The notes beneath the pieces are model-generated. The model searched no databases, was not told the DNA's origin, and saw nothing but the letters and a program-made list of their open reading frames with translations. Source: Dethiobacter sp. (GTDB taxonomy: Bacteria; Bacillota; Dethiobacteria; DTU022; UBA8154). From it: a stretch of 64,000 bases of DNA. Location of the stretch: the NCBI GenBank assembly GCA_020725665.1, contig DYEO01000037.1, positions 9,558 through 73,557 on the forward strand, given 5' to 3'. Below, piece by piece: positions 276 through 23,098 of this stretch. The position numbers and the translations under genes were made by a program. The first letter of the stretch is position 1. Every line of letters begins with the position of its first letter.

Positions 276-1559
276 ATGAGTGAACCCGTGGTGCAGACTG
301 GACGAAAAATTCCTCCAAAGACGTGGTTGGGTTTTCTGGCCGCACTCGGTCCAGGATTATTCATTGCCGCTTTTCACCTCGGTCCCGGTGATGTTGCCAC
401 ACATGCCGTGATCGGGTCATTGCATGGTCTAGAAATTGTATGGGCACTGGTCGTTGGTGTAGTTTTACTGGGATTCTTAACCGAGATGGTGGGTCGTTAT
501 GTGGCGGTTACCGGAAATTCCATTTTTGATGGTTTTCGCTCTATCGGCAGTTGGGCTTCAACATTTATGTTTATTGGAATGTTGGGCATCTGGGCAACTT
601 TTGGCAGTGCCACTTCCCTGGCAGCGGGGCTTGGATGGCAGGCTGTTTTCCCCTTTCCCGGCGTTGATTTTTTAATCGGTGTGCGTATTTGGGGTACAAT
701 TATGCTTTTTGTCTGCTTTTTGCTGGTTTTCTTCAATAAATATCTCATGTTGGAAAACATTATCAAAGTGCTTGTTGTATTTATGACTCTTTCGTTTCTT
801 ATTACCGCCGTTATTGTCGGGTTCGACTGGAGGTCAATATTCAGCGGCTTGACGCCTCCCTTTATGCCCCAGGGAGCGGCCTGGTTGGTCGTAGCACAAA
901 TAGCCGTAGTAGTGGGCGGGGTTACCTCCATAATGTACGGTTATGCCTCCTATGCCAAGGGATGGACTCACTCAGGCTGGATCAAGCCGATACGTTTTGA
1001 TATTACATTCTCTTATATTCTGCTATTCATCATTGACCTGTGTATCATGATGGCGGCTTTTAAAGTGCTTATGCCGGCGGGAGTTGAACCGCGCACGGGT
1101 ATTGATCTTGCCTTTATGCTGGAGCCTCTGTTTGGCAAATATGCTCTCTATATTTTTTCCCTGGGTTTGTGGGGAGCGGCAACTACTACGCTTTTTGGGG
1201 CATTCCTGGGCAGTTACGGATTTTTAGATTTTCTGAACCCCAAGGAGTACCACAAAGGTGAGGATGAATTCCGGAAGAGTGGATATTTCAAATCCTTACT
1301 GGTAATGGTTTTGGTTCTCTGCGGCATGTTTCTTTGGGTGTATCTCGGACCTCCTATCTGGATGATGATGATCCTGTACATTACGGGCGCTGTATGGATG
1401 CCGGTAATGGCGATTGTGCTCGTGATTTTGACAAACAGCCGCAAAGTGATGGGGGATTACGCTAATGCCCCCTGGATGAGGTATGTAGTTTGCCCCATAC
1501 TTATTGCCCTCTCTTTTATCTCTGCGTATACAGGAATTAAAGAAGTATTCTTCAGCTAG
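276..1559 (+). CDS. NRAMP-like (YcsG-type) secondary transporter
   Basis: About 11 hydrophobic segments; LGPG...HLGPGD in TM1 lacks the metal-binding DPGN; SBP-free permease; RBS GGAGG. Confidence 0.75.
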   Translation: MSEPVVQTGRKIPPKTWLGFLAALGPGLFIAAFHLGPGDVATHAVIGSLHGLEIVWALVVGVVLLGFLTEMVGRYVAVTGNSIFDGFRSIGSWASTFMFIGMLGIWATFGSATSLAAGLGWQAVFPFPGVDFLIGVRIWGTIMLFVCFLLVFFNKYLMLENIIKVLVVFMTLSFLITAVIVGFDWRSIFSGLTPPFMPQGAAWLVVAQIAVVVGGVTSIMYGYASYAKGWTHSGWIKPIRFDITFSYILLFIIDLCIMMAAFKVLMPAGVEPRTGIDLAFMLEPLFGKYALYIFSLGLWGAATTTLFGAFLGSYGFLDFLNPKEYHKGEDEFRKSGYFKSLLVMVLVLCGMFLWVYLGPPIWMMMILYITGAVWMPVMAIVLVILTNSRKVMGDYANAPWMRYVVCPILIALSFISAYTGIKEVFFS

Positions 1560-1698
1560 ACAACGGCTTATGAAGAGCAATGATGCAGGGTGTTCCCGGT
1601 TTTCCATAACGATAGTGCCGGGGCACCCGGGCGTTGCTTGATCTGTAAACCGGATAATGCACGCACAAGGCAGGTTGCAAAGGGAGCGGGTCCGTCAA

Positions 1699-2670
1699 AT
1701 GAATGCACTAATGGACGTTTTAATGTTTGTTATCAGTGTATGCATTATTTTAAAAGGGGCTGACTGGTTTATTGATGCAGCTGTATGGATGGCGCGCAAA
1801 ACGGGTATACCAAAGATCCTCATCGGTGCAACACTTGTAAGCCTGGCCACGACTTTACCTGAGCTTGCCGTATCGGCAAGCGCTTCTTTGCGGGGTCATC
1901 CGCAGGTTGCGCTGGGTAATGTGTTGGGTTCCTGTATAGCCAACGTGGGTTTGATTGCTGCCTTGGTTTTAATCATACGGCCGATCAATGTGCTGCGCCA
2001 AATTCTTTTGGATAAAGGAATATTTCTATTTATTGTCAGTGGATTGGCTTTGCTAATCAGTTCTTATAAGGGAATGCTTGGAGACTTTGAGGGTTTGCTT
2101 CTGCTAGTGTCTTTTTTTACCTATATCCTTTACCTGGTAAGTAAAACCTTTGGCAAAAATTCGCGGACCGGAAATTTATTGTTTGAAGAAAAAGAAAATC
2201 ACGGGAACGGTGAGACCTGGATAAATATTGCTATGTTTACCGGCGGGGCTTTACTGGTTGCAGGGGGAAGCCGCCTGCTGGTTGATTCAGGAGTAAGAAT
2301 AGCTTATTTATTGGGAATTCCGGAATTGGTAATTGCCGTCCTGTTAATAGCTGTTGGCACGTCGCTTCCGGAGCTGTGCACTGCTGTGGTAGCCTACTTA
2401 AAAAAGCATCAGGATTTATCCCTCGGCAACCTCCTTGGAGCCAATATTATCAATCTATCCCTGGTTTTACCGGTTTCTGCGATTATTAACCCCATTGTCC
2501 TGACGCAAGGCAACATTTCTTACCATTTCCCCGCTGTTTTTCTTGTTAATGCGCTGATTTTTCTGATCATAGCTTTTTGCCGCAACCGCCTGACACGTTA
2601 TCATGGGTTCCTTTTGCTAACCAGTTATATTATGTATATTACTGGCATGATTATCTTTTTCCGGGAATGA
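1699..2670 (+). CDS. Ca2+/Na+ (K+) antiporter, YrbG/CaCA family
   Basis: Alpha repeats ATTLPE...GNVLGS and GTSLPE...GNLLGAN; start placed at ATG 1699 after AGGGAG. Confidence 0.88.
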   Translation: MNALMDVLMFVISVCIILKGADWFIDAAVWMARKTGIPKILIGATLVSLATTLPELAVSASASLRGHPQVALGNVLGSCIANVGLIAALVLIIRPINVLRQILLDKGIFLFIVSGLALLISSYKGMLGDFEGLLLLVSFFTYILYLVSKTFGKNSRTGNLLFEEKENHGNGETWINIAMFTGGALLVAGGSRLLVDSGVRIAYLLGIPELVIAVLLIAVGTSLPELCTAVVAYLKKHQDLSLGNLLGANIINLSLVLPVSAIINPIVLTQGNISYHFPAVFLVNALIFLIIAFCRNRLTRYHGFLLLTSYIMYITGMIIFFRE

Positions 2671-2710
2671 TTTTTTTGAATCATAAATATACTGATTTTT
2701 CCGGGACATA

Positions 2711-2800
2711 TTGACATTTTGAAATAATCATGTTACTTTCTAATTTAGTAGAGCTAAATTTTTGTTATATATTATATAGTAAATTGAGTGGCGCTTAATT
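2711..2800 (+). promoter_or_regulatory. sigma-A-type promoter P2 (TTGACA-17-TACTTT) with two palindromic operators (2742-2760, 2782-2800)
   Basis: AATTTAG-TAGAG-CTAAATT and AATTGAG-TGGCG-CTTAATT; same spacing from the -10 box as in P1. Confidence 0.78.
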
Positions 2801-2870
2801 AGCAGGGCCAGGGGGTGGAAGCATAAAATTAGCTGCCGCATAAAAATAAAAACTTAGGGAGGTTTCGGCC

Positions 2871-4256
2871 ATGAGTAAGGACCTGAGAAGCTTTATACAG
2901 CAGATGGAACAAACAATGCCTCAAGATTTTTTAAAAATAAAAAAAGAAGTGAATCCACGTTTCGAACTCTGCGCTGTGCTGCGCAAATTTCAGGAGAGCA
3001 ACCAGTTTCCGGCCGTTTTTTACGAGAACGTAAAAGGAACAAAAATGCCTGTTATCGCCAATACGCTGGCTGCGCGGGAGCGGTTGGCCCTGGCCCTGGA
3101 GACTACTTCCCACGCTTTAACTAAAGAATATGCCGGAAGGCAGCACGATCTAAAACCGGTGATGCGAGTGGATCATGGCCCGGTAAAAGAGATAGTTTTA
3201 TCAGGGGGAGCAGTCGACGTTACCTCACTCCCCCAGGTTGTGCATTGTGAAAAGGATGGCGGCCCCTATATTTCCTCTGGCATAATGATCCTCAAAGATC
3301 CGGACTCCGGAGTTTACAATATGGGAATTTACCGCATCCAAATCAAGAGTAAAAACAAGCTGGGTATCTACTTTGGTGCTTACTCGCATGCGGCACATAT
3401 TTTTCGCAAGTTTGAAGAACGGGGCGAAGTAATGGAACTGGCCATTGCCATCGGGCACCATCCGGCTGTTTACTTGGGGGCTCAGTACCGCGGTCCCTTT
3501 GAAATTAGTGAACTCGAGGTAACCGGCGGGCTGCTCGGCGAACCGCTGCGCATGGTTAAGGGGGAAACAGTTGATCTGGATGTGCCGGCTGATGCGGAAA
3601 TTGTGATTGAAGGGCGCATTCCGCCCGGTGTCAGGGAGATGGAGGGGCCTTTCGGTGAGTATACCTGGTATATGGGTGATGCGCTTGAAAATCCAATCAT
3701 AGAAGTCACTGCTGTTACCCATCGCCGCGATGCCATTTATTATGATATCTTCAGTGCTCACCCGGAACATAACCTTACCGGTCTGCTGGGACGGGAGGCG
3801 ATTCTCTGGGAAAGGCTGAAGGCCAGTATCCCTACGGTAAAGCAGGTAGTGTTGCCCTTTTCCGGAACCTGCCGTCACACCGTCTATGTTTCGATCAAGA
3901 AAGAATATGACGGCTTGGGGAAAAACGCGGCACTTGCCGCACTCGCCGGCGACCCCTTCATGAAGATGGCTGTGGTTGTAGATGACGACATAGATGTTTT
4001 AAACGAGTCGGAGGTTTTGTGGGCCATTTGCACAAGAGTGCAAGCGGATCGTGATGTTTTTATTATTCCCGATGCCTATGTGTGTGAGCTTGACCCCTCT
4101 GCCTACGATATAAAGGGCAAGGAAATTCGCGGTTACCTCAACTGCAAATGGGCAATTGACGCGACAAAGCCGGTTGAAATCCCCTTCCAGGAAAGGGCGG
4201 AAGTTCCGGAAGATATGTGGAAAAATCTCGATTTAAAATACTACCTGGAAAGCTAA
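2871..4256 (+). CDS. UbiD-family prFMN-dependent (de)carboxylase, copy 1
   Basis: DLRSF N-terminus, DGGPY, GIYR, EGPFGE, VVVDDDID, AIDAT motifs. Confidence 0.93.
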   Translation: MSKDLRSFIQQMEQTMPQDFLKIKKEVNPRFELCAVLRKFQESNQFPAVFYENVKGTKMPVIANTLAARERLALALETTSHALTKEYAGRQHDLKPVMRVDHGPVKEIVLSGGAVDVTSLPQVVHCEKDGGPYISSGIMILKDPDSGVYNMGIYRIQIKSKNKLGIYFGAYSHAAHIFRKFEERGEVMELAIAIGHHPAVYLGAQYRGPFEISELEVTGGLLGEPLRMVKGETVDLDVPADAEIVIEGRIPPGVREMEGPFGEYTWYMGDALENPIIEVTAVTHRRDAIYYDIFSAHPEHNLTGLLGREAILWERLKASIPTVKQVVLPFSGTCRHTVYVSIKKEYDGLGKNAALAALAGDPFMKMAVVVDDDIDVLNESEVLWAICTRVQADRDVFIIPDAYVCELDPSAYDIKGKEIRGYLNCKWAIDATKPVEIPFQERAEVPEDMWKNLDLKYYLES

Positions 4257-4274
4257 AAGAGGGGAGGAGAGACA

Positions 4275-5603
4275 GTGCAAGAGGATTTAAGGAGCTTTCT
4301 TGCCAAAGCGGAACGGTCCGGGAAACTGCAACGGATCAGACGCGAGGTGGATCCCAAATTTGAGTTGGCCGCCGTGTTAAAGAAAATCCAAACAACCTCA
4401 GGGAAAGTGGCATTGTTTGAAAAGGTAAAGGGTTATGAGATGCCCGTGGTAAGTAACGTTTTCGGTTCCCGGGAAATCCTGGCACTGATCTTTGATACGG
4501 TGCCGGAAGATGTAGTCAGGGAATTTGTTTCCCGACGGGAGCGGCAGATCAAACCGGTTCTGGTACGGGATTCTCCGGTTAAAGAAGTGATTAAAACGGG
4601 GGAGGAAGCAAGCATCCAGGCTCTCCCCCTGGTTACCCACTGCGAAAAGGATAACGGGCCTTTTGTAACCGCAGGCATTATTATCACCAGGGATCCACAG
4701 ACAGGCATACGTAATGTTTCCATCAACCGCATGATGTACAAAAACGAAAATACGCTGGGCTGCCGCATGATGCCGCCGCAGCACCTGGGGATCATTCAGG
4801 TCAAGGCGGAGGAAATGGGCAAGCCTCTGGAAGTTGCTGTGGCCATTGGCAATCACCCTATTGAATTACTGGTGGCCTCTACCACTCTGCCTTTTGGTTA
4901 TGACGAATTTGATTTGGCCGGCGCCTTGCGGGGCGAGCCCCTGGAACTGGTTAAATGTGAAACGATTGATCTGGAAGTGCCGGCCGGCTCGGAAATTGTG
5001 CTGGAAGGTGAAATTTTGCCCAATGTCCGGGAAGCGGAAGGTCCTTTTGGCGACTTCATGCAGTGCTATATTCCCGTTATGGAAAATCACGTGTTTAAGT
5101 TAAAGGCAATTTCGCGTCGCAAAGATGCCATTTATCAGACTATACAGGCCAGTTCCCTCGAAGACATGCATCTGCTTGGTCTCTCACGGGAGGCGGATGT
5201 CTACAAAGCGGTAATAAACACCGGGGCTAAGATAAAGGCGGTAAGCCTTATCCCCACGATTCTCAGTTGTGCCATTTCCATAGAAAAGCAGTTTACCGGA
5301 GAGCCCAAAAACGTGGCTGCGGCTGCTTTTGGCTGTTACTCCTGGTTAAAGTACTGTGTTGTGGTCGATCATGATGTAAATGTTTTTGATATCAACGATG
5401 TATGGTGGGCGATGGCTTCGCGGAGTGATATTAACAAGGGTCTTTTTGTCATGGAACATGCCCGGGGGTTCCCCCGTGATCCCTTTAATATTCACAGCGG
5501 CAAATTGGCTATTGACGCCACAGCCCCGCTGAACTGCTGGGGAGAGTTTGAACGTAAGCGTATTCCCGGTGAGGAAAGTATAAATCTGCAGGATTATCTT
5601 TAA
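4275..5603 (+). CDS. UbiD-family prFMN-dependent (de)carboxylase, copy 2
   Basis: DLRSF, SINR, EGPFGD, VVVDHDV, AIDAT motifs; GTG start with RBS. Confidence 0.92.
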   Translation: MQEDLRSFLAKAERSGKLQRIRREVDPKFELAAVLKKIQTTSGKVALFEKVKGYEMPVVSNVFGSREILALIFDTVPEDVVREFVSRRERQIKPVLVRDSPVKEVIKTGEEASIQALPLVTHCEKDNGPFVTAGIIITRDPQTGIRNVSINRMMYKNENTLGCRMMPPQHLGIIQVKAEEMGKPLEVAVAIGNHPIELLVASTTLPFGYDEFDLAGALRGEPLELVKCETIDLEVPAGSEIVLEGEILPNVREAEGPFGDFMQCYIPVMENHVFKLKAISRRKDAIYQTIQASSLEDMHLLGLSREADVYKAVINTGAKIKAVSLIPTILSCAISIEKQFTGEPKNVAAAAFGCYSWLKYCVVVDHDVNVFDINDVWWAMASRSDINKGLFVMEHARGFPRDPFNIHSGKLAIDATAPLNCWGEFERKRIPGEESINLQDYL

Positions 5604-5638
5604 AACAACGTCCTGATGAAAAGTGGGAGGTTATTTAG

Positions 5639-6739
5639 ATGTTAAGCGAGGATGAATTAAAAAACATTGGTGAGATTATTGACCGGTTGATGACCGTGCC
5701 TGTCTATACCGGTTCTTCCCTGACGCGCCGGCCTGTATTGTTGGAGTTGTACGAAGCGGCCAGGAAAAAATTTGGAGCGCCCTTGACGTATCTGGCAGCA
5801 GATCTGATTAGTAAGAGCCTTCAGCCGGGGGATACGGTTTTGCTCACCACGGGTTTCATCGTGCCTCCGTGGATGAGGGCGGAGAATGACGGCCCTGTTG
5901 GTGCGGTTAACCTGGCCCGTGCTTTAAACCTGGCTTTCGATATTACCCCGGTGATTGTTGCGGAAAAAGCCGTAACTTCTATGATGGCCCCGCTTTGCGG
6001 TGCTGCCGGTTTGGCCGTAACGGATTATGAGAAAGCAAAAGCATATTACCGCCGTGTTGCCCTGGAGCAATTTACAACAGACTCCGCCAGGGCAAAAGCC
6101 GAGGCGGAAGAGTTACTGGAACGTACCAAACCATCATTGCTGGTAGCCATTGAAAAAGCATCGGCCAACGAAAAGGGCGTATACCATAGCGGCGTGGGAT
6201 ATGATATCAGCCCCATGGCGGCCAAGGTGGATGTTCTCTTCAACATGGCCAGGGAGAGAGGCATTCCGACAATTGGCATCGGCGATGGTGGTAACGAGTT
6301 GGGCATGGGCTGTATAAAAGAGACGGTTAAGCAGGTGGTCCACACCGGTGGAAAATGCGGGTGTCCCTGTGGTGCCGGTACTCACTCGGGTACGGAGACG
6401 GATCTGCTGCTGGTGGTCATGGTTTCAAATTGGGGTGCCACGGCAATCGCCGCCAATTTAGCGGCCAGGCTGGGAAAACCGGAGATCCTGCACAAGCGCA
6501 GCATGGAGGAGAAACTCCTGGAAGTGGGTGCGACGGCCGGCTTTATTGACCCGGCAGCAGGCCTCAGCCTCTCCAGCGGCGATGCTATCGATAAGGATGT
6601 GCATCTTGCCATGGTGGACATCCTCAACTTTATTGTAAATTCCCGTTTAAAAGACAGCTTCTATATCGAGAAATACCGTTGGTATGTAAGCGAACGGCGG
6701 GAGCAGATCCAGAATCTGATCAGCCAGTGGACAGAGTAG
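5639..6739 (+). CDS. DUF4392 / D-glutamate cyclase-like protein
   Basis: TTGF...ENDGPVG, GIGDGGNELGMG, CGCPCG and SNWG motifs. Confidence 0.85.
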   Translation: MLSEDELKNIGEIIDRLMTVPVYTGSSLTRRPVLLELYEAARKKFGAPLTYLAADLISKSLQPGDTVLLTTGFIVPPWMRAENDGPVGAVNLARALNLAFDITPVIVAEKAVTSMMAPLCGAAGLAVTDYEKAKAYYRRVALEQFTTDSARAKAEAEELLERTKPSLLVAIEKASANEKGVYHSGVGYDISPMAAKVDVLFNMARERGIPTIGIGDGGNELGMGCIKETVKQVVHTGGKCGCPCGAGTHSGTETDLLLVVMVSNWGATAIAANLAARLGKPEILHKRSMEEKLLEVGATAGFIDPAAGLSLSSGDAIDKDVHLAMVDILNFIVNSRLKDSFYIEKYRWYVSERREQIQNLISQWTE

Positions 6740-6753
6740 GGTTTGATGTTTTT

Positions 6754-6787
6754 GGAGCAGGCTTACGTGGGGAGTAGGCTTACGTGG
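6754..6787 (+). repeat. 17-bp tandem duplication GGAG(C/T)AGGCTTACGTGG x2
   Basis: Read directly in the intergenic region. Confidence 0.8.
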
Positions 6788-6826
6788 ATAGCCTGGATAA
6801 ATACAATACCGGAGGTGGATAGCTAA

Positions 6827-8560
6827 ATGAGTAATATCGTAACTCAGATCGAAACGGATGTCCTTGTCGTCGGCAGTGAAGGAACAGGGGCGCGGGCCGC
6901 GATTGAAGCAGACAATTATGGGGCGCGCACCATTCTTGCCAGCAAGGGTATTTTTGGCGGCAGCGGAGTGACGCTGATGGCTCCCTATTCCTGTTGTGTG
7001 GCTTTCGGCCATGAGGACCCCCGGGATAACCCCAGGGAACATGAGAAGGATACGATCATGGGAGGGCAATTTCTGGGCAACCAAAGGCTTATTCGTGTAT
7101 ATACAGAAAATGCTCCGCAGCGTATGCTCGACCTGGAAAGCTACGGGGCACGGTTTAATAAAAAGGAAGACGGTAAATTTGAACAGGTGCTCATGCCCGG
7201 GCACCGTTTCCCCCGGGCCATACATTATAAATTTGCCACGGGAAAGCAATTTCGCAAAGGCCTGATGAACGAGGTAGGCAGGCGTCCCAATATTAAGGTA
7301 TATGAAGACTTCTTTGTCCTTGACCTGCTCGTGGAAAGTGGCAAAATTAGCGGTGCCCTGGCCCTGGATTTGCGCACCGGCGAACTTGTCCTGGTTAAAA
7401 CCGGTGCCGTTATATTAGCTACCGGTGGAGCCATGGAAATGTTTTACCCCCGCAGTGATGCTTCCTGTGACCTGACGGGAGACAGCCATGCCATGGCATT
7501 ACGGGCCGGGGCACAGTTACGGGATCTGGAATTCATGCAATTTTTCCCCACGGGGATGGTCCACCCACCGGCCCTGAATGGTGTGATCTGGATCGGTCAG
7601 CTACGTTACAAGTGCGGCGGCCTTCTTTATAACCGCTATGGCGAACGCTTTATGAAGAAATACGATCCTGTGAACATGGAACTTTCTACACGTGACCTTG
7701 TTTCACGGGCTATGGCAACCGAAATCATCGAAGGTCGCGGTACCCCCCATGGCGGCGTCTGGCTCGATGTTTCCTATCTAGGAGACAACATTGTGGAAGC
7801 TTATGCTGCCGAAGTTTTCCCCAACTTCTCTTTCCGCGGCTACAACCTCCTGGAGGCCGGAGTGGATATTCGCAAGGATGCCATAGAGGTAGCTCCGATG
7901 GCACATTTCTACATGGGCGGCATTACCATTAACGAGTTTTGTGAAACGGGGATCGAAGGCCTTTATGCGGCGGGAGAAGTAACTGCGGGTATTAACGGGG
8001 CAAACCGCATTGAAGGGAACGCCCTTTCGGAGATCCAGGTTTTCGGTGCCATTGCCGGGCAGGTGGCGGCCCAATATGCCGGACAACAGGCTAAAAGCGA
8101 ACCGAACAGGGAACAGGTCGAGGAGAAGTGTGCAGCTCTCCTGGCACCCCTGGAGCGAAACGAAGGTGTCTCCTATTTTGGATTACGCCGCCAGGCGCAG
8201 GAGATTATGTGGACGCAGGTTGGTCTTGTGCGCGATGGTGAAAAACTGGAGAAAGCAGCTGCTGCACTTACCTCGTTGCGCGAGCAATCCTCCCGGATTT
8301 GTGTGCGTAATAAAACACGGGAATGCAATCGTGAGTGGATGGAGGCCCTGGAAACACAAAACATGTTGTTGCTGGCGGAAGCGATGGCCCGTTCAGCCCT
8401 TTATCGCAAGGAAACCAGGGGAGCCCATTATCGCCGTGATTATCCCGAAAAAAATAATGACCAGTGGCTTGTCAATGTAGTGGCTACCCTGGAGGGGGAA
8501 AAGCTTAACATTAACCAAGCGCCTGTTGAGTTTACTTATCTGAAGCCGGAGGAGGTTTAA
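6827..8560 (+). CDS. Succinate dehydrogenase/fumarate reductase (TfrA-like) flavoprotein with atypical active site
   Basis: GSEGTG dinucleotide fold, LATGG, ELSTRD, AHFYMGG, GANR, ETRGAHYR. Confidence 0.88.
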   Translation: MSNIVTQIETDVLVVGSEGTGARAAIEADNYGARTILASKGIFGGSGVTLMAPYSCCVAFGHEDPRDNPREHEKDTIMGGQFLGNQRLIRVYTENAPQRMLDLESYGARFNKKEDGKFEQVLMPGHRFPRAIHYKFATGKQFRKGLMNEVGRRPNIKVYEDFFVLDLLVESGKISGALALDLRTGELVLVKTGAVILATGGAMEMFYPRSDASCDLTGDSHAMALRAGAQLRDLEFMQFFPTGMVHPPALNGVIWIGQLRYKCGGLLYNRYGERFMKKYDPVNMELSTRDLVSRAMATEIIEGRGTPHGGVWLDVSYLGDNIVEAYAAEVFPNFSFRGYNLLEAGVDIRKDAIEVAPMAHFYMGGITINEFCETGIEGLYAAGEVTAGINGANRIEGNALSEIQVFGAIAGQVAAQYAGQQAKSEPNREQVEEKCAALLAPLERNEGVSYFGLRRQAQEIMWTQVGLVRDGEKLEKAAAALTSLREQSSRICVRNKTRECNREWMEALETQNMLLLAEAMARSALYRKETRGAHYRRDYPEKNNDQWLVNVVATLEGEKLNINQAPVEFTYLKPEEV

Positions 8561-8562
8561 TT

Positions 8563-8901: not shown

Positions 8902-8922
8902 AAATGCCTGAATAGGGAGGGA

Positions 8923-9645: not shown

Positions 9646-9754
9646 TTATCCTAAAAAAAAGAAGAAAGAGGGTGGAAATGCAGATTATCGGATCCGGTGG
9701 CCGGCATCAAAAGGGTGTTTTAGGGCAAAATCGTACAAAGGGGAGGGTCTGTTA

Positions 9755-13526: not shown

Positions 13527-13543
13527 GAAGGTGGTCGATTATA

Positions 13544-14257: not shown

Positions 14258-14277
14258 CTTGGACAGGAGAAAGGGCT

Positions 14278-16202: not shown

Positions 16203-16446
16203 AGACCTGACCCTCGCTGACATCCGGTCGGTATTGCAGCGTGGTTATACGTCGTTGGAAGAGATCAAAAGAATTACACGTTGCTGTATGGGGCCCTGCC
16301 AGGGCCGGACGTGCCGGGATCTGGTTGTAAAGGAAATTGCCCGTAGCAGTGGGAAAAAAATTGAGGATATTGGCCTGACGGTTTTCCGGCCTCCGGTCAA
16401 GCCAATCAAAATAAAATGCCTGCTGGGAGTATGGGAGCATGAATGA
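16171..16446 (+). CDS. BFD-like 2Fe-2S subunit of the same complex
   Basis: VCRCED...MGPCQGRTC, RPP. Confidence 0.85.
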   Translation: MEEDTIVCRCEDLTLADIRSVLQRGYTSLEEIKRITRCCMGPCQGRTCRDLVVKEIARSSGKKIEDIGLTVFRPPVKPIKIKCLLGVWEHE

Positions 16447-17596
16447 GCTTGTTGATGCCGTAATCATTGGAGGCGGGATTCACGGGTGTGCTATTGCCTG
16501 TTCCCTGGCACAAAAAAGCCGGCAAAAAATTCTGCTTTTAGAAAAAAAATACCTTGCTGCCGGGGCAACAGGCCGTTGTGCTGCCGGGATTCGCCAACAG
16601 TTTGGCACGGAAATAAACATTCGCCTGGCAACGGCCAGCATAAAAAAATTTGAACAGCTGCAGGATGAACTGGATTATCACCGGAACGTTGGTTTGTTGC
16701 AGCATGGGTATCTCATGCTGGCCTATTCTCAGTCCGAATTAAAACAGTATCAGGAAAATGCACTCCTCCAGAAACAAATCGACGCTAACAACCAAACCTC
16801 GCTGCTGGGTGTTGATGAAATAAGTGAGATGGTTCCCCAACTCAACCTCAAAGGAGTTGTTGGCGCTTCCTACAATCCCAAGGATGGCCACGTCGATCCC
16901 TTTCTGGCTACGGATGCTTATGCCACTGCAGCCCGTAGAAGGGGAGTGGAGATTCGCACGGATACCGAGGTTACGGACATTTTGCTGCAGGGCGAAAGGG
17001 TATGTGGTGTGGTTACACATAAGGGAGAAATTATCCATACACCTGTGGTTGTTAACGCCGCGGGGGCGTTCGGCAGTATCCTGGGAAAGAAGGTGGGGAT
17101 TGACCTGCCCCTTTATCCGGAACGTCACCAGTTGCTGGTAAGCGAGCCCCTGGAAATGTTTCTGGGTCCTACAATTATTTCTTTTTTTCACGGTGCCTGT
17201 TTCAAACAAACTCCCCAGGGCAGTCTTATCCTGGGCGTGGGAGACCCGCAGCACGAAATAAAGGCATTAAATGAACGGTCAAGCTGGCAGTTTTTGGGCG
17301 ATGTGGCACGTAAGCTGACCTACCATATGCCTTTGCTGGAAAATATCAGTGTTATCCGGCAGTGGGCCGGATTGTATGATATGACTCCCGATGCACAGGG
17401 GATAGTGGGAGAAACGGGAATAGAAGGCTTTTACCTGGATTTGGGCTGGAGCGGCCATGGGTTCCAACTGGCTCCGGCAATCGGCCAGATTATGGCGGAG
17501 ATTATTTGTGGGGAAAAACCGTTTATCGATGTGCGTGTTTTATCACTGGAACGCTTTGCGCGGGGCGAACTGATCCCGGAGCCATACTGTGTGTAA
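16439..17596 (+). CDS. FAD-dependent amine oxidase (DAO/DadA, sarcosine oxidase beta-like) catalytic subunit
   Basis: GGGIHG, GATGRCAAGIRQQF, WAGLYDMTPD, GWSGHGF. Confidence 0.88.
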   Translation: MNELVDAVIIGGGIHGCAIACSLAQKSRQKILLLEKKYLAAGATGRCAAGIRQQFGTEINIRLATASIKKFEQLQDELDYHRNVGLLQHGYLMLAYSQSELKQYQENALLQKQIDANNQTSLLGVDEISEMVPQLNLKGVVGASYNPKDGHVDPFLATDAYATAARRRGVEIRTDTEVTDILLQGERVCGVVTHKGEIIHTPVVVNAAGAFGSILGKKVGIDLPLYPERHQLLVSEPLEMFLGPTIISFFHGACFKQTPQGSLILGVGDPQHEIKALNERSSWQFLGDVARKLTYHMPLLENISVIRQWAGLYDMTPDAQGIVGETGIEGFYLDLGWSGHGFQLAPAIGQIMAEIICGEKPFIDVRVLSLERFARGELIPEPYCV

Positions 17597-17621
17597 TATG
17601 AACATCATGGGAGTGAGAAAT

Positions 17622-18479
17622 ATGCATTGGGAAGCCTATCATTGTGTGGAGAGTATTGAGGAAGCGCTGCAATTACTGGATGAATATGCAGGTGCATCAC
17701 GTGTGATTGCCGGGGGAACCGACCTGGTTATTCAGTTGAAGAATCACCAGCGGAGGGTTAAGGCGTTAGTATCTCTGTCTTCAATAAAGGCTTTAAGGTA
17801 CATTGAACAGGATGGTGAAACAATCAGGATAGGAGCTTTAAGTACGCACAATGAATTGGCGAAATCAGATCTGCTCATGGAAAAGGCAAAAGCCCTTTCC
17901 CTTGCTGCGCGCGCGGTAGGCTCACCGCAAATTCGTAATATTGGAACCGTAGGCGGTAATATTGTTAACGCCCAACCAGCGGCTGATACAGCTATAGCTT
18001 TGCTGGCCCTGGGAGCAAAAGCGAAAATAGTTTCTTCTACCGGAGAAAGAGTGGAAGTTCTGGAAAATCTTTTTAAAGGTATTGGGGAATCATCAGTTAA
18101 TCCGGCTAAAGAGATTGTAACAGAGTTTATTTTTCCTGCATTTTTTAGAAGTGCGTTCCAAAGGTTAGCACTCAGGAAAGCTTTTACTCTGCCAATTATT
18201 AATGTTGCAGTGGCTTTACTGATTGATCAAAAAAACATTTGCCGGGAAGCGAGGATTGCCATTGGTCCTGTATCTACTGTTCCATTCAGGGCAAAAAAAG
18301 CGGAAGCGATATTAAATAATGAAATAATATCGGAGAAAAAATTGGTTTTGGCTGCTGCAGAAGCAATGCGTGAAATTAATCCCCGGGATAGTTTGCTACG
18401 GGGTAGTGCGATGTATAGACGTGCAATGGTAAAGGTGCTTTTAGAACGTGCTTTACGTGATGCGGTTGTGGTTAAATAA
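17622..18479 (+). CDS. Xanthine dehydrogenase-family FAD subunit
   Basis: IAGGTD, SPQIRNIGTVGGN, AAD. Confidence 0.9.
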   Translation: MHWEAYHCVESIEEALQLLDEYAGASRVIAGGTDLVIQLKNHQRRVKALVSLSSIKALRYIEQDGETIRIGALSTHNELAKSDLLMEKAKALSLAARAVGSPQIRNIGTVGGNIVNAQPAADTAIALLALGAKAKIVSSTGERVEVLENLFKGIGESSVNPAKEIVTEFIFPAFFRSAFQRLALRKAFTLPIINVAVALLIDQKNICREARIAIGPVSTVPFRAKKAEAILNNEIISEKKLVLAAAEAMREINPRDSLLRGSAMYRRAMVKVLLERALRDAVVVK

Positions 18480-18510
18480 ACAAAAGATTTAAATAAAGGA
18501 GTCAACATTT

Positions 18511-18975
18511 ATGGAAAAACTGGAATTAACAGTTAATGGTTATCATTACCAGGTACAGGTTGAGCCTGATGAAACGCTTTTGGATATGCTCAGGGAGCAG
18601 CTTAAGCTGACCGGGACAAAGAGTGGTTGTAATAAGGGGGAATGTGGTGCCTGTACTGTAATTATGAATGGCATGGCTGTCAATTCCTGTCTCGTTCCGG
18701 CTTTGCAAGCCCGGCATGCCGAGATACTGACGATAGAAGGATTGAGCAAAGGAGAGGAGTTGCACCCCATTCAAGAGGCCTTCCTTGCATCCGGAGCCGT
18801 TCAGTGCGGATACTGTACCCCTGGCATGATCCTGTCAGTTAAAGCCTTGTTGGACAATAACCCCAAGCCCACAGTAGCGGAAATTCAGGAAGGAATTTCC
18901 GGCAATCTGTGCCGCTGTACCGGTTATGAGCAAATAGTGCAAGCTGTACAGTCATTGGCTGGTAAAAAGGTTTAA
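18511..18975 (+). CDS. Xanthine dehydrogenase-family 2x(2Fe-2S) subunit
   Basis: GCNKGECGAC, QCGYCTPG, NLCRCTGY. Confidence 0.93.
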   Translation: MEKLELTVNGYHYQVQVEPDETLLDMLREQLKLTGTKSGCNKGECGACTVIMNGMAVNSCLVPALQARHAEILTIEGLSKGEELHPIQEAFLASGAVQCGYCTPGMILSVKALLDNNPKPTVAEIQEGISGNLCRCTGYEQIVQAVQSLAGKKV

Positions 18976-18993
18976 TTTAAGGGGGTGATCCTG

Positions 18994-21249
18994 ATGGAAA
19001 AAAAATATTGGTGTGTTGGCCAAAATTTTCGTAAGGACGGAAAAGAAAAAGTAAAAGGTGAAACTAAATACGCCGGCGATATCTTTTTACCAGACATGTT
19101 ATTTGCAAAACCCCTTTTGGCGCCGGTTTCCCATGGCAGGCTCAAAACTATCGATACCAGTTTGGCAAAATCTTTGCCTGGTGTGGTAGCAGTGGTAACT
19201 GCTGAGGACATTAAGGGCAGCAACCGCTTCGGCCCCGTAATGCAGGACCAACCGGTGCTGGTGGGTGTTGGGGAAGATTTTAAATTTTTAGGCGATACGC
19301 TTGCCCTGGTTGCTGCTGAAAATAAAAAAATTGCTGAAGAGGCTATCCGGTTGATTAAGGTGGATTATGAAGAACTGCCGGGACTCTATAATTTTAACGA
19401 AGCTTTGGCCGATGGCGCCTTTCGCCTTCACCAGAACATGGAAAAGAATATCTGCAGTAGCGGGGAAATCGTTATCGGTGATATAACCAGTGGTTTTAAT
19501 GAGTCAGATATTATCCTGGAAGAAATTATTCAGACGCCCCGCCAGGAGCATGCCTACCTGGAAACGGAGGCTGCCGTTTCCTTTTTCGATAACCAGGGCA
19601 GGGTAAATCTTTATTCCTGTCTTCAGGACCCCTACTACTTTAATTACGACATTGCCCAGGCTTTAGGGTTGCCGGCCAACCGTATCAGAACGGTGGCAAC
19701 CACCGCTGGTGGTGCTTTCGGCGGGAAAGATGATATAACCCTACAGGCCCATGCCATTCTTTTAACATTGGTAACAGGCAGACCCGTCAAAATGGTTTAC
19801 AGCCGGGAAGAATCCATTTTAATTCATCCCAAAAGGCACCCGTCGGAAATACGTATTAAAATCGGCGCCACAAAAAACGGCAGGATTACTGCTTTTGAAG
19901 GCAGGGTCTTGATTGATGCCGGGGCATATACAGGGCGCTCGCCTGTGGTGTTAACCGTTGCCCTGAACAGCTTTGTGGGTCCGTATTACATTCCCCATAT
20001 TAAGCTTTATGGACATGCCGTCTATACGAACAATCTTGTGGCAGGCGCCTGCAGGGGGTACGGGCAACCTCAGAGCAATACTGCCAGGGAATTGGTTTTG
20101 GATATGCTGGCGGATCGCTTGAACATTAACCCAGTTACTCTTAGGAAGATAAACGCCCTGAAACAGGGCCAACAAGCGGGAACCAGGTTGGTTAACCTGG
20201 ATACTCCCCCAACCCTTGACTCATTATTGGATCAAACAATGGCGGTACTGGAAAAAAGCCCTCACGACGACACTCCGGCTTATTGCAAAAGGGGAACGGG
20301 AGTAGCCTGTGCCATGCCGTTATTTGATATTTCAGCGTTGCCCTCCTTGGGACTTGCAGGAACAGGTGTGGCCATACAAATGCATCCCGATGGTTCCCTC
20401 GTAGTTTATGCAAGTGCGGTGGAATGCGGGCAGGGCGTAATTTCTGTACTGGCCCAGATTGCTGCGGAAGAATTTTCAGTAAATCCCGGGGATGTTGAAG
20501 TGATTTTAGCCGATACGGACAGTACACCAAAATCCGGTCCCACCACAGCTTCCCGTCAAACATATACTTCGGGAAATGCCCTGAAGATTGCTTCAGAACA
20601 TCTTAAAAAAAGGCTTATTTCCTTCGGGAGCAGACTTCTAAACGTGGCAGAGGAAAAACTGTATTTTTACGGAGGCAAAATGCTTGTAAAAGACGGTGAG
20701 GGAGAAGTCCCTTTATCAAAATTAGCAAAGGAGTGTTATTACGCCGGCGTTAATCTGAAGGAGGAAGCCTGGTTTCGTTCCAATCACGCAACCATAGGTC
20801 ATACATTTATTGCTACAGCAGCGGATGTTGAAGTTGATACTTTAACCGGAAGCGTTAAGGTTCTCAAATTGGTAACGGCACATGATATTGGTAAGGCCAT
20901 TAACCCTCTTGCCGCAGCCGGTCAGATTATCGGTGGTGGTATGCAAAGCCTGGGGTGGGCGATGACAGAAGACCTTATGCAAAAGGACGGCATGGTGGTA
21001 ACCCCTTCCCTCGCGGAATACTTAATTCCCACAGCGCTTGATCTGCCTGCAATGGAAACAATTTTAATGGAAAACCCCTATCCAACAGGACCTTATGGAG
21101 CAAAGGGGGTGGGAGAACATGCCAGCATGACAGCGGCGGCTGCTATTTTGAATGCAATTTACCAGGCAACAGGAAAGATGGTAACAAATTTTCCGGCAAC
21201 CCCTGAAAAGGTATTTAATTTAGTCACCGGCATACCTGAAAGCAGTTAA
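18994..21249 (+). CDS. Xanthine dehydrogenase-family molybdopterin-binding subunit
   Basis: HAYLETE, GGAFGGK, RGYGQPQ, ASRQT, AKGVGE (catalytic Glu). Confidence 0.92.
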   Translation: MEKKYWCVGQNFRKDGKEKVKGETKYAGDIFLPDMLFAKPLLAPVSHGRLKTIDTSLAKSLPGVVAVVTAEDIKGSNRFGPVMQDQPVLVGVGEDFKFLGDTLALVAAENKKIAEEAIRLIKVDYEELPGLYNFNEALADGAFRLHQNMEKNICSSGEIVIGDITSGFNESDIILEEIIQTPRQEHAYLETEAAVSFFDNQGRVNLYSCLQDPYYFNYDIAQALGLPANRIRTVATTAGGAFGGKDDITLQAHAILLTLVTGRPVKMVYSREESILIHPKRHPSEIRIKIGATKNGRITAFEGRVLIDAGAYTGRSPVVLTVALNSFVGPYYIPHIKLYGHAVYTNNLVAGACRGYGQPQSNTARELVLDMLADRLNINPVTLRKINALKQGQQAGTRLVNLDTPPTLDSLLDQTMAVLEKSPHDDTPAYCKRGTGVACAMPLFDISALPSLGLAGTGVAIQMHPDGSLVVYASAVECGQGVISVLAQIAAEEFSVNPGDVEVILADTDSTPKSGPTTASRQTYTSGNALKIASEHLKKRLISFGSRLLNVAEEKLYFYGGKMLVKDGEGEVPLSKLAKECYYAGVNLKEEAWFRSNHATIGHTFIATAADVEVDTLTGSVKVLKLVTAHDIGKAINPLAAAGQIIGGGMQSLGWAMTEDLMQKDGMVVTPSLAEYLIPTALDLPAMETILMENPYPTGPYGAKGVGEHASMTAAAAILNAIYQATGKMVTNFPATPEKVFNLVTGIPESS

Positions 21250-21305
21250 AATAAAGTATTTATTTTTACCCAACATTAACAACATAAAATTAGCGGGAGG
21301 TCAAG

Positions 21306-22391
21306 ATGATGCAAATCGATACCATCGCCATTTTGGGAGCAGGCAACGGAGGCCGGGCTATGGCTGCCGACTTAACACTGGCCGGGTTTAAGGTTAATCT
21401 ATACGAGTTGCCGCAATTTGCAGGCAGTATAGAACATATTTTAAAAAGCGGGGAAATTGTCATATCAGGCGTTGCCAGGGAAGGTAAGGCAAAGATAAAT
21501 CTGGTTACCACGGATATAGCTGAGGCATTGTATGGTGTGGAGTTAGTTTTGCTTTGCGTGCCCTCTTTCGGACAAAAAATGATGGCTGAAATTTGTGCCC
21601 CGGTATTGCGTGACGGCATGACAGTTGTTCTTATACCGGGAGGGTTCGGCAGCTTTGTTTTCTACCGGGTGCTCCAGGATTTAGGCATAAATAAAAACAT
21701 AACACTTGCAGAAGTAGCCACACTTCCTTATGGAGCGAGAATTATATCGCCGGAAGAGGTAATAGTACACATAAATGCTATTAATTTACCCACCGGCGTT
21801 TTCCCTTCAACAAGGACAGCTGAAGTCATAAAAACATTACAAAATTTATATCCGGCCATCACCGCTGCGGAAGATATCCTCGATGTAGCGTTGAATAACG
21901 TAAATCCATGTGTTCATCCTGCTCCTTCAATTCTTAATACGGGACGCATTGAATATGCCGATGATTTTTATCTTTACCGTGAAGCGATGACACCATCCGT
22001 GCGGCGTGTTATGGTGGCAGTGGACAGGGAACGGCAGGCGGTAAGAGAGGCCTGGGGCTATAAGCCTCCCCATTTTGGCCTTGATCCTGATACTTACGAA
22101 GTTTTCGAGGATTATTTCGGACGTGGCGGTGTCGACCAGGCAGGTAAAAAGATGCGCGGGCCTCTTTCCATGAAAGATCGCTACATTACCGAAGATATAC
22201 CTTATGGGCTTGTTCTATATGCATCTGCAGGAGATGTGGTAGGCGTTGACACTCCTGCCTGTGACGCCCTGATTAACCTGGCTTCAATTATTAACAAAGA
22301 AGATTACTGGCAGACGGGGCGGACCTTTGCCAGTCTTGGACTGGAAAATATAGTTCCAGCAAAGCTTAAGGAACTGTTACACAATGGTTAA
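21306..22391 (+). CDS. NAD/NADP octopine/nopaline (opine) dehydrogenase family protein
   Basis: GAGNGG, TLPYGAR, NVNPCVHP, RYITEDIPYGL. Confidence 0.88.
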   Translation: MMQIDTIAILGAGNGGRAMAADLTLAGFKVNLYELPQFAGSIEHILKSGEIVISGVAREGKAKINLVTTDIAEALYGVELVLLCVPSFGQKMMAEICAPVLRDGMTVVLIPGGFGSFVFYRVLQDLGINKNITLAEVATLPYGARIISPEEVIVHINAINLPTGVFPSTRTAEVIKTLQNLYPAITAAEDILDVALNNVNPCVHPAPSILNTGRIEYADDFYLYREAMTPSVRRVMVAVDRERQAVREAWGYKPPHFGLDPDTYEVFEDYFGRGGVDQAGKKMRGPLSMKDRYITEDIPYGLVLYASAGDVVGVDTPACDALINLASIINKEDYWQTGRTFASLGLENIVPAKLKELLHNG

Positions 22392-22441
22392 AACATTTGA
22401 ACCGGATTTTCAGGTCAGTAATACTTTTTAAAACAAAATAG

Positions 22442-22470
22442 TTGCAATAATTAAGTATTTCCTCTAATAT
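22442..22470 (+). promoter_or_regulatory. Probable promoter of the XRE regulator (TTGCAA-17-TAATAT) containing an AATTAAG half-site
   Basis: Read directly. Confidence 0.55.
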
Positions 22471-22561
22471 TTATATGATTAAAAGATGCTATACATTTTA
22501 GGCTGATCAAAGAAAAAAAGTATTTTGTTGTTGACAGGTAAAGGATAAAGGGAGTGTATTA

Positions 22562-23098
22562 ATGATTGGTGACCGTTTCAGGATGTTACGTCAAAGTAAA
22601 AAAATGAGTATTAAAGAAGTGGCAGAAAAATCAGGACTGACTTCGAGTTTTATAAGCCAGATAGAAAGGGGGTTATCAGGGGTTTCTCTTTATAATTTGA
22701 GGGATCTATGCAAGGCAATTGATGTTCCTTTTTATTATCTCTTTCTTGAGGAAACCACTGGACATATTGTAAGGAAGAACGAACGGGTTAAATATGAACT
22801 GCCTAACTCTCCTGTTAAATATGAGATTCTTTCCCCGCGCAGAGCGGATATTAAGATTGAACAACTATTGTTAAATCTTGAAGCAGGTAATGAAAATTCA
22901 ATGCAACCAATGGCTCACTTTGGAGAAGAAATTGCCCTGATATTAAATGGAACAGTGGGTGTTGAACTTAATGGCAATGTCAATGAGTTAAACAGTGGAG
23001 ACTGTATACAATTTCAAAGTGAAATTCCTCATCGCTATATTAATCTCGGTCAATCAGAAGCACAAATTTTGATTACAGTAACGCCGCCCAGTTATTAA
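22562..23098 (+). CDS. XRE-family HTH + cupin transcriptional regulator (PuuR-like)
   Basis: SQIERG HTH; HFGEE...GDCIQF...PHRY cupin. Confidence 0.9.
   Translation: MIGDRFRMLRQSKKMSIKEVAEKSGLTSSFISQIERGLSGVSLYNLRDLCKAIDVPFYYLFLEETTGHIVRKNERVKYELPNSPVKYEILSPRRADIKIEQLLLNLEAGNENSMQPMAHFGEEIALILNGTVGVELNGNVNELNSGDCIQFQSEIPHRYINLGQSEAQILITVTPPSY

Follow-up and report, generated by a model that had tools for sequence, protein, structure and literature searches.

A packed gene cluster in a Dethiobacter genome as a candidate anaerobic route for nitrogen-heterocyclic acids

Introduction

What compound would a bacterium attack with two UbiD decarboxylases, a relative of D-glutamate cyclase (DUF4392), an altered succinate dehydrogenase-like flavoprotein, a molybdenum hydroxylase and an amine dehydrogenase, and do the genes for these enzymes serve a single pathway? 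The question is raised by a 64,000-nucleotide stretch of Dethiobacter sp. DNA (assembly GCA_020725665.1, contig DYEO01000037.1, positions 9,558 to 73,557; G000:C32:9558-73557 in our numbering), here called the window. It belongs to a genome of 2.99 Mb in 90 contigs, with an estimated completeness of 96.4%. Open reading frame (ORF) calls, with families taken from Pfam and NCBIfam, place 23 consecutive plus-strand genes at 276-23098. Twenty of these, at 2871-22391, form a co-oriented run in which several genes overlap and the largest gap is 87 nt.

A first-pass annotation of this DNA, made from the sequence and a list of its ORFs, had described the whole 23 kb as one co-regulated anaerobic locus for the catabolism of a nitrogen-containing carboxylate. 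Every gene family that it named was recovered on the plus strand where it had been placed. The tight, co-oriented packing was borne out over 2871-22391, and the unusual QFFPT motif reported for the flavoprotein is real. The range that it drew (276-23098) does hold a compact unit but also takes in two genes missing from its list, for an Nramp-type metal transporter and a Na+/Ca2+ exchanger, as well as a 200-nt AT-rich gap before the first UbiD gene. Its expectation of oxygen-independent breakdown agrees with the host genome. Neither COX1 nor cytochrome bd was found there (96.4% complete), so the organism is most likely a strict anaerobe. Pfam detected no oxygenase, coenzyme A (CoA) ligase/AMP-binding or enoyl-CoA hydratase/hydrolase domain among the 23 proteins. 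Taken as a whole, the earlier interpretation is partly supported.

A proposed route for nitrogen-heterocyclic acids

The reading that we prefer, at a probability of roughly 45%, is that 2871-22391 constitutes one operon for the CoA- and O2-independent degradation of an N-heterocyclic (di)carboxylate or a cyclic imino acid. A nitrogen-containing ring is suggested because several of the enzymes are of C-N type and the importer is of amino-acid type. About half of that probability falls to a substrate with a five-membered ring. The favoured substrates are pyrrole-2-carboxylate or pyrrole-2,5-dicarboxylate and their reduced forms, or picolinate and dipicolinate. That the locus is an anaerobic, Mo-hydroxylase-based cluster for heterocycle catabolism is a well-founded and testable hypothesis rather than a demonstrated pathway.

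In the route envisaged here, the Liv-type ABC importer would bring in an amino-acid-like compound. UbiD1 would take one carboxylate off a ring with a carboxylate to either side of its heteroatom, and UbiD2, with an Asp at the specificity position, would act on a second, differently substituted ring acid. The xanthine dehydrogenase (XDH)-type Mo enzyme would use water to hydroxylate the carbon beside the ring nitrogen, yielding the lactam tautomer. The SdhA-like enzyme and its 2Fe-2S partner would reduce (or form) the ring C=C bond beside the single carboxylate that its remaining site can hold, and this enzyme may accept the electrons released by the Mo enzyme. After isomerization or racemization of an intermediate by a two-cysteine enzyme, DUF4392 would open the 5-oxoproline-type lactam to a D-amino dicarboxylate (glutamate or 2-aminoadipate). 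Finally, the proline dehydrogenase (PDH)-like complex and the opine dehydrogenase-like enzyme might feed saturated ring forms into the route or deaminate the D-amino acid.

A bolder version of this proposal, which we regard as doubtful, concerns a six-gene core (UbiD1 of HmfF type, UbiD2 of Asp type, DUF4392, the two-cysteine isomerase, and the QFFPT flavoprotein along with the 2Fe-2S protein) together with the nicotinate dehydrogenase-like Mo hydroxylase. These would make up an undescribed CoA- and O2-independent route from pyrrole or pyridine (di)carboxylates to glutamate or 2-aminoadipate, in which DUF4392 would be an ATP-independent lactam hydrolase and the flavoprotein a new type of SdhA-family ene-reductase. 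One candidate substrate for such a core route is dipicolinate from spores in the subsurface.

If true, the proposal would give the widespread DUF4392 family its first physiological role in prokaryotes and would define a substrate class that is new for the SdhA family, in one of its divergent flavoproteins. It would also supply natural partners and candidate substrates for HmfF-type UbiDs, which are of interest in biocatalytic carboxylation, and would indicate how strict groundwater anaerobes mineralize N-heterocyclic acids. With a core of only six genes and residue patterns that are conserved, the reading is directly testable with recombinant enzymes.

The UbiD decarboxylases

Both UbiDs carry the UbiD_N, UbiD and UbiD_C domains and score well above the cut-off of 245 bits for TIGR00148 (359 and 361 bits), at 37% identity to each other. 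The best PDB match of each is 6H6V (331 and 352 bits for UbiD1 and UbiD2), which is PtHmfF, a furan-2,5-dicarboxylate (FDCA) decarboxylase (PMC8988006). When aligned with the 6H6V chain, whose positions 296/304/331 are His/Arg/Arg, UbiD1 keeps the triad (H300/R308/R335) and UbiD2 has it altered (D297/R305/I329). The H-R-R pattern is kept in both UbiD1-type orthologues (the window and locus L003 of a Thermodesulfobacteriota genome, described below), and D-R-(I/L) in four of four UbiD2-type orthologues. Four further UbiD paralogues from the host genome, included in the alignment, have neither pattern. According to Payne et al. (2019), H296-R304-R331 is reportedly the substrate site of the HmfF branch, and an H296N change is said to shift preference to pyrroles.

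UbiDs depend on prenylated flavin mononucleotide (prFMN), the product of UbiX. Three UbiX-sized ORFs of the Flavoprotein family (195-202 aa) lie elsewhere in the host genome, on contigs C77, C3 and C84, and prFMN is predicted to be available to the host UbiDs from these UbiX-like ORFs.

An altered flavoprotein and a two-cysteine enzyme

The flavoprotein was aligned with two mycobacterial SdhA structures, 7D6V and 6LUM. It has V48 in place of the His that binds flavin adenine dinucleotide (FAD) covalently, F240 in place of the His of QFHPT, and I256-G257 in place of the Thr-Glu pair. The RD motif still has its catalytic Arg, and the His in HxxMGG and the Arg in GANR are likewise retained. Its NCBIfam score for TfrA is 529.6 bits against a cut-off of 718. 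The QFFPT motif also occurs in the DUF4392-linked homologues of three other loci (L003, L108 and L099) and is absent from the SdhA/NadB-like paralogues of the host.

The 112-aa partner corresponds to the N-terminal 2Fe-2S domain of SdhB/TfrB only, and its NCBIfam matches cover the first 100-115 profile positions. Its fold and catalytic Arg are those of succinate dehydrogenase/fumarate reductase, TfrAB and L-aspartate oxidase, as are a single His/Arg pair for carboxylate binding and the pairing with a 2Fe-2S protein. It differs from this group in that three features are gone, namely the His for covalent FAD, the His of QFHPT and the Thr-Glu pair; there is no membrane anchor, and its partner is the 2Fe-2S domain alone in place of a three-cluster SdhB. 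On these residues the two proteins fall outside SdhA/FrdA. We would instead predict a soluble enzyme with non-covalent FAD and a site for one carboxylate, next to which it would hydrogenate or dehydrogenate a bond.

The Amdase/Asp-Glu-racemase-superfamily protein finds its PDB matches among arylmalonate decarboxylases (AMDases) and maleate isomerases. It belongs to the superfamily without an assignable specific function, as it misses the NCBIfam cut-offs for EutA (153 versus 318 bits) and AMDase (118.6 versus 225 bits). AMDase has one catalytic Cys; two-Cys members of the superfamily have one in each pseudo-symmetric half. Because both Cys residues are conserved (6/6 orthologues), the protein is, from its sequence, a two-base racemase/epimerase or cis-trans isomerase and not an AMDase.

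The DUF4392 protein

DUF4392 is the C-terminal domain family of mammalian (mouse) D-glutamate cyclase, DGLUCY, which converts D-Glu to 5-oxo-D-proline (PMC5339696). The window protein, of 366 aa, shares this DUF4392/GLUCM-like_C domain with DGLUCY and with Thermococcus TON_0340. PF14336 is its only domain; it lacks the additional DUF1445 domain of DGLUCY (PMC5339696). Its profile matches TON_0340 and homologues (4dwz, 5gkx and 4fc5; E about 5e-35). TON_0340 is a Mn-binding enzyme with weak, Mn-dependent phosphatase activity in vitro and is only 268 aa long (PMC5132392), and the window protein has in addition a CxCxC motif. This motif, C240-x-C242-x-C244, is invariant in 23/23 aligned members of the subfamily and could be a metal or Fe-S site. 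The accessible text on TON_0340 makes no mention of it (PMC5132392). Taken together, the window protein is a candidate metal-dependent lactam hydrolase/cyclase.

PF14336 stands alone in all 120 near-length DUF4392 matches listed. A search for forms of at least 642 aa (large fusions, for example with a racemase) returned none at E ≤ 1e-20, which counts for little. A Thermovirga 'racemase' is annotated as DUF4392-containing (PMC5339696) and is not used here as an argument for fusion. On the Sinorhizobium meliloti plasmid pRM41A, a DUF1445-type 'putative hydro-lyase' gene lies 3.6 kb upstream of DUF4392.

Importer, dehydrogenases and the opine alternative

The importer is a full Liv-type set, and the closest solved relatives of its substrate-binding protein (SBP) are the amino-acid binders 3TD9 and 4GNR. 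Behind it lies a five-gene complex whose DAO subunit has its best PDB match in 1Y56_B (244.5 bits), which PMC4575208 (its reference 30) identifies as belonging to the L-proline dehydrogenase complex of Pyrococcus. The five genes supply the tandem subunit set (DAO beta, Pyr_redox_2 alpha, small 2Fe-2S and delta-like) of L-ProDH/D-HypDH/OpnDH, and by family content the complex is a heteromeric flavin/Fe-S amine dehydrogenase. The same subunits occur in archaeal L-proline dehydrogenase, bacterial D-hydroxyproline dehydrogenase and the flavin-containing opine dehydrogenase OdhABC. Unlike those enzymes, the window complex is split into five genes, has a separate Fer4 protein and lies inside an operon with UbiD, XDH and DUF4392.

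The XDH-family set is complete, with a Mo subunit (hammerhead and two MoCoBD domains), a 2x[2Fe-2S] subunit and an FAD subunit by Pfam. The Mo subunit matches the alpha subunit of 4-hydroxybenzoyl-CoA reductase (4-HBCR; 328 bits) and the L and M subunits of Eubacterium barkeri nicotinate dehydrogenase (299 and 148 bits). NCBIfam equivalog cut-offs for the XDH proteins were missed, the best score being 532 versus 784 for pucD. The last enzyme, an opine dehydrogenase-family protein, combines a Rossmann domain with the Octopine_DH helical domain and matches CENDH (1BG6, 158 bits) over its full length as its best PDB relative. In Pseudomonas putida, the flavin opine dehydrogenase has an NAD(P) opine-synthase-like gene next to it (PMC4575208). 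The window locus likewise has an opine dehydrogenase-family gene along with its flavin complex.

Could the locus then be an opine or lactam-opine pathway? In such a scheme DUF4392 would open an N-substituted 5-oxo-D-proline ring of the pyronopaline type, the opine dehydrogenase and flavin complex would split the secondary amine, and the heteroaromatic or unsaturated acid set free would be processed by the other enzymes. We consider this improbable. CENDH being the closest solved relative of the opine dehydrogenase fits the scheme, as does the inclusion of flavin opine dehydrogenases in the DAO-type complex family (PMC4575208). Opine dehydrogenase homologues also lie directly beside DUF4392 at two other loci: L004 (49% identity, with DAO, DUF4392 at 59% and an aldehyde:ferredoxin oxidoreductase) and L082 (42%, with the racemase at 59% and DUF4392 at 55%). 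DUF4392 homologues occur, moreover, on 70 plasmid records, mostly rhizobial. In the plasmid contexts that were inspected, however, DUF4392 does not adjoin opine genes. On Agrobacterium tumefaciens pAtCFBP7129b (L191) the order is LysR, Thr/Ser dehydratase, DUF4392 and then RidA, and on S. meliloti pRM41A (L192) it is LysR, Thr/Ser dehydratase, DUF4392 and then an ABC-transporter SBP gene. Archaeal loci, from Nitrososphaerales, keep DUF4392, the racemase and UbiD2-type genes, with or without a UbiD1-like gene, and have no opine dehydrogenase. The habitat is groundwater and subsurface, and an opine substrate would leave two HmfF-like UbiDs and the XDH without a role.

Conservation of the core in other genomes

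Support for the preferred reading, a single operon acting on an N-heterocyclic acid, comes from gene neighbourhoods elsewhere. At least 159 DUF4392-centred loci were collected, at least 79 of them from species-representative genomes and at least 80 from metagenomes. The closest relatives of the window DUF4392 are proteins 72-88% identical to it, which are not among the metagenome loci listed. Identity reaches 48% or more at only four genome loci among the matches listed.

The most informative locus is L003, on contig C118 of a Thermodesulfobacteriota metagenome-assembled genome (MAG; G041). Its genes for DUF4392, the flavoprotein, the 2Fe-2S protein, the racemase, UbiD1 and UbiD2 are syntenic with those of the window at 54-67% identity. 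In a phylum-wide sample the orthologue occurs in 1/401 genomes, G041 itself. This MAG also encodes an orthologue of the XDH Mo subunit (52% identity, versus 32-43% for the other nine matches, with paralogues at 36-37%). That gene lies in an operon on contig C174 with XdhFAD, XdhFeS (60%), TAXI/TRAP, Amidohydro_2, M20 peptidase, SBP (42%) and LivHMGF (42-49%) genes. The C174 operon begins at the contig end (L189), which shares an exact 11-nt overlap within a G-rich tract with the end of C118. Within the 75 kb of G041 examined, this 11-mer is found at no other place. A join at this point would set the six-gene core immediately upstream of the C174 operon. On the strength of this exact overlap, the core, XDH and Liv genes are probably contiguous and co-oriented in G041.

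Other loci preserve parts of the set. All five PDH-like genes adjoin a 34%-identity DUF4392 at L129, and L108 combines the flavoprotein, the 2Fe-2S protein, an aminotransferase and DUF4392. A non-transporter partner of the operon, at a match coverage of at least 50%, was found at 7/8 listed loci with a DUF4392 identity of 44% or more, versus 24/151 others; the eighth of the closer loci is a 1.7-kb contig. The first-pass annotation had named as one refutation of its own that the sub-modules never co-occur in other genomes and are transcribed independently. The syntenic six-gene core in the Thermodesulfobacteriota MAG counters it, and on other contigs DUF4392 adjoins opine dehydrogenase-like, DAO-type, PDH-complex, SdhA-like and UbiD genes.

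A further role considered for DUF4392 was that of a dimethylallyl pyrophosphate (DMAPP) phosphatase or other prFMN helper. This is unlikely, since most DUF4392 loci lack a UbiD; one is present at only 3/151 and 4/8 of the listed loci in the two identity classes.

One pathway or several

The same neighbourhoods leave room for another account, whose odds we put well short of even. The locus may be two or three independent units that act on different substrates and became neighbours through chance or the assembly of an island: the six-gene core; an imino-acid/opine unit of the Liv importer, the proline/opine-dehydrogenase-like complex and the opine dehydrogenase; and the XDH enzyme. The modules do occur apart. 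L003 has no PDH or opine dehydrogenase gene within 10 kb upstream of its core, and a Pyr_redox_2 homologue was not found in G041 at E ≤ 1e-20. A second G041 locus joins DAO, Liv, an opine dehydrogenase-like gene (34-37% identity) and a 38% DUF4392 paralogue without a UbiD. In P. putida, the flavin and NAD(P) opine genes form a self-contained opine unit (PMC4575208). Set against such separate origins are the dimensions of the locus itself, where the module borders are a 20-nt gap (LivF to Fer2_4), an 8-nt overlap (DAO and XdhFAD) and a 56-nt gap (XdhMo to the opine dehydrogenase), within a run whose gaps never exceed 87 nt. No terminators above chance were detected, and the entire stretch was not found in three same-genus genomes. 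The probable contiguity of core, XDH and Liv in a second phylum and the repeated adjacency of DUF4392 to opine dehydrogenase and DAO genes likewise speak against separate units.

Several observations nevertheless weigh against a single operon with the chemistry proposed here, beginning with the absence of Pyr_redox_2 from G041 and the placement of its opine dehydrogenase-like gene at the second locus. The G041 operon has TRAP, Amidohydro_2 and M20 genes in place of the PDH-like and opine dehydrogenase modules. Since neither module is conserved with the core there, the two may form a separate unit. With the PDH-like complex not found in G041 and the opine dehydrogenase-like gene elsewhere in it, the claim that all modules serve one pathway draws on the Dethiobacter genome alone. 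All NCBIfam equivalog scores fall below their cut-offs, no UbiX is encoded in the locus, and a search of sequencing runs for the locus listed no RNA run. Proteobacterial DUF4392 genes have unrelated contexts, with Thr/Ser dehydratase on one side and RidA or an ABC-transporter gene on the other. Hydrolysis of the 5-oxoproline lactam is energetically unfavourable. Where DUF4392 stands alone in a protein, the one activity reported in vitro is the weak phosphatase of TON_0340 (PMC5132392); cyclase activity has been demonstrated for the two-domain mammalian protein only (PMC5339696).

Comparison with known systems

The hmf route of Cupriavidus basilensis HMF14 (hmfABCDE and hmfFG) is one of the two closest precedents. 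In it, an HmfF-type UbiD removes one carboxylate of FDCA, a three-subunit furoyl-CoA dehydrogenase attacks the ring carbon beside the heteroatom, and the route ends in 2-oxoglutarate (PMC8091172). The window resembles it in having an HmfF-type UbiD beside a three-subunit dehydrogenase, with PtHmfF the best solved relative of both UbiDs. HmfABC is itself a member of the XDH Mo family. Unlike the hmf set, the window locus has no HmfD CoA ligase, HmfE-type hydrolase or UbiX/HmfG. It has instead two UbiDs, DUF4392, the QFFPT flavoprotein, a racemase, an amine dehydrogenase, an opine dehydrogenase and an amino-acid-type importer.

These parallels invite a furan reading, a CoA-independent anaerobic form of hmf leading from FDCA through furoate, 5-hydroxyfuroate and a lactone to 2-oxoglutarate. 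The HmfF-branch triad retained by UbiD1 would suit it, and a UbiD of this type near a three-subunit dehydrogenase mirrors hmfABC...FG (PMC8091172). We hold it to be highly improbable: among the 23 proteins there is no equivalent of HmfD (CoA ligase) or HmfE (hydratase/hydrolase), and five modules are of C-N type (the amino-acid-type SBP, the DAO complex, the opine dehydrogenase, the glutamate-cyclase-like protein and the racemase).

The second precedent, the upper part of the nicotinate fermentation of E. barkeri, proceeds by Mo hydroxylation, partial ring reduction and hydrolytic C-N opening (PMC9304392). The window offers candidates for the Mo hydroxylase, the reduction and the ring opening, and its Mo subunit matches nicotinate dehydrogenase L and M. 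It differs in its candidate enzymes: an SdhA-like flavoprotein would serve as the reductase, and DUF4392 would open the ring in place of an enamidase-type amidohydrolase. The nicotinate pathway is not known to include UbiDs or amine dehydrogenases. The aerobic dipicolinate dip cluster was also considered and rejected as a match; its first enzyme is a monooxygenase that depends on O2, and the pathway needs no Mo cofactor (PMC11472048).

In the literature searched, with subscription papers and supplements outside its scope, we found no description of this gene combination, of a function for prokaryotic DUF4392 or of a UbiD-dependent route for dipicolinate or pyrrole acids. Nor did any anaerobic route for dipicolinate, picolinate or pyrrole carboxylates turn up in the same search. 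Like the first-pass annotation, we know of no described pathway that matches the full set; that annotation had missed the hmf route and the E. barkeri logic, the closest precedents. All of the families are known. What is undescribed is their combination, together with the QFFPT flavoprotein, the Asp-type UbiD2 and the CxCxC DUF4392 variants.

Host genome and distribution

The locus is an accessory one by its distribution within the genus. Window positions 1-20000 have no DNA counterpart in four same-genus genomes (G001-G004) except for short conserved XDH/ABC segments. Locus DNA was not found in G001, G003 and G004, and the Nramp DNA is without a match in all four. G002, which is 69% complete, has an opine dehydrogenase fragment only, in a different context. 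From 23248 onward, the window matches same-genus genomes at about 70-85%. None of 24 genomes of the host family matched a DUF4392 query, and 2/16 genomes from other families of the host order carry paralogues of 34-40% identity. A compositional case for horizontal transfer was rejected: the locus has a GC content of 48.3% versus 50.6% for the genome, and its tetranucleotide distance lies at the 42nd percentile of 175 windows. By these measures the locus is without sign of recent import.

The G002 fragment (C79:1-513) consists of the first ~157 opine dehydrogenase codons at 84-88% identity, frameshifted and at the start of a contig. It adjoins TrkH, HlyD and FtsX-type genes, not XDH.

Five studies of groundwater and the subsurface have metagenomes with locus DNA. 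In four DNA runs, contigs matching at ≥99% identity cover 30, 29, 28 and 19 of 30 locus bins. These are short pieces that bridge some gene junctions, and none spans the whole locus. The four runs thus place the same sequence in independent samples and say nothing on expression.

The host genome holds eight UbiD and eight XDH Mo-subunit paralogues (C77:54219-63173, C24, C3:26136-32035, C72 and C63). Such numbers make adjacency of these two families likelier than in an average genome, which favours the account of independent units. On C77, XdhFAD, XdhFeS, XdhMo and UbiD lie on one strand with a UbiX-like gene ~3 kb off, and on C3 three UbiD genes adjoin a UbiX-like gene. From this gene content, the host looks specialized in anaerobic (hetero)aromatic acid metabolism.

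Locus anatomy, leader and flanking genes

The features of the locus are collected in Table 1. The leader ahead of UbiD1 is a candidate promoter and operator: it contains the hexamer TTGACA and, at 2761-2783, an imperfect palindrome, and has GGGAGG as a ribosome-binding site. The XRE-cupin gene, which starts 170 nt beyond the operon end, encodes a candidate ligand-sensing regulator. Co-regulation of the locus is something that we infer from gene spacing only. Promoter and terminator scans gave counts at the level of shuffled sequence (29 versus 26.1 expected and 24 versus 23.8; 7 versus 6.1 and 5 versus 4.9), and their results are not used as evidence. An Rfam scan of 1-27000 returned no family, so neither a riboswitch nor a leader element was identified there.

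Table 1. Positions in the window, strand and basis of assignment for the genes and leader of the locus
Feature	Position	Strand	Basis
Nramp-family divalent-metal transporter	276-1559	+	Pfam PF01566, 138.5 bits
Na+/Ca2+ exchanger-family membrane protein	1657-2670	+	Pfam PF01699, 183 bits
AT-rich 200-nt leader ahead of UbiD1	2671-2870	+	Sequence reading, inverted-repeat search
UbiD1	2871-4256	+	Pfam UbiD_N/UbiD/UbiD_C
UbiD2	4275-5603	+	Pfam UbiD_N/UbiD/UbiD_C
DUF4392 (GLUCM-like_C) protein	5639-6739	+	PF14336, 230.9 bits
SdhA/TfrA-like flavoprotein	6827-8560	+	Pfam FAD_binding_2 212.7 bits, Succ_DH_flav_C 116.7 bits
112-aa Fer2_3 2Fe-2S protein	8563-8901	+	PF13085, 86.3 bits
Amdase/Asp-Glu-racemase-superfamily protein	8923-9645	+	PF17645, 124 bits
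Liv-type ABC importer, whole set (SBP and LivHMGF)	9620-14257	+	Pfam
SBP	9620-10915	+	
LivH	10959-11825	+	
LivM	11773-12756	+	
LivG	12756-13526	+	
LivF	13544-14257	+	
Five-gene amine dehydrogenase-like complex	14278-17596	+	Pfam
Fer2_4	14278-14592	+	
Pyr_redox_2	14549-15712	+	
Fer4	15672-16202	+	
SO_alpha_A3	16162-16446	+	
DAO	16439-17596	+	
XDH-family Mo enzyme, FAD subunit	17589-18479	+	Pfam
XDH-family Mo enzyme, 2x[2Fe-2S] subunit	18511-18975	+	Pfam
XDH-family Mo enzyme, Mo subunit	18985-21249	+	Pfam
NAD(P)-dependent opine-dehydrogenase-family protein	21306-22391	+	PF02317, 122 bits
XRE-HTH and cupin regulator (PuuR-like)	22562-23098	+	PF01381, PF07883; PuuR 61.9 bits versus cut-off 211

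A second pairing of an XRE-cupin gene (34% identity) with an opine dehydrogenase-like gene (29%) is found elsewhere in the host, at G000:C16:28899-32209.

UbiD enzymes bind Mn2+ together with prFMN. Electron paramagnetic resonance evidence of it has been obtained for the UbiD enzyme AnInD (PMC8988006). Given this Mn2+ binding and the Mn dependence of TON_0340, the Nramp protein could possibly supply Mn2+ to the locus enzymes. An Nramp gene also flanks the core in the Thermodesulfobacteriota MAG (L003, 8414-9745), in divergent orientation and with 28% identity to that of the window.

Upstream on the contig lie genes for SLH-domain proteins and an ECF transporter. Downstream of the locus are MacB-type ABC genes, a thiolase gene and a 2-oxoacid:ferredoxin oxidoreductase-like gene. 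Farther along, at 37241-37291 and inside an ORF without a Pfam match (36946-39459), a 29-43-nt stretch has more than 20 matches in the same-genus genome G004. These are spread over many contigs and both strands at 85-100% identity, as in a short dispersed repeat.

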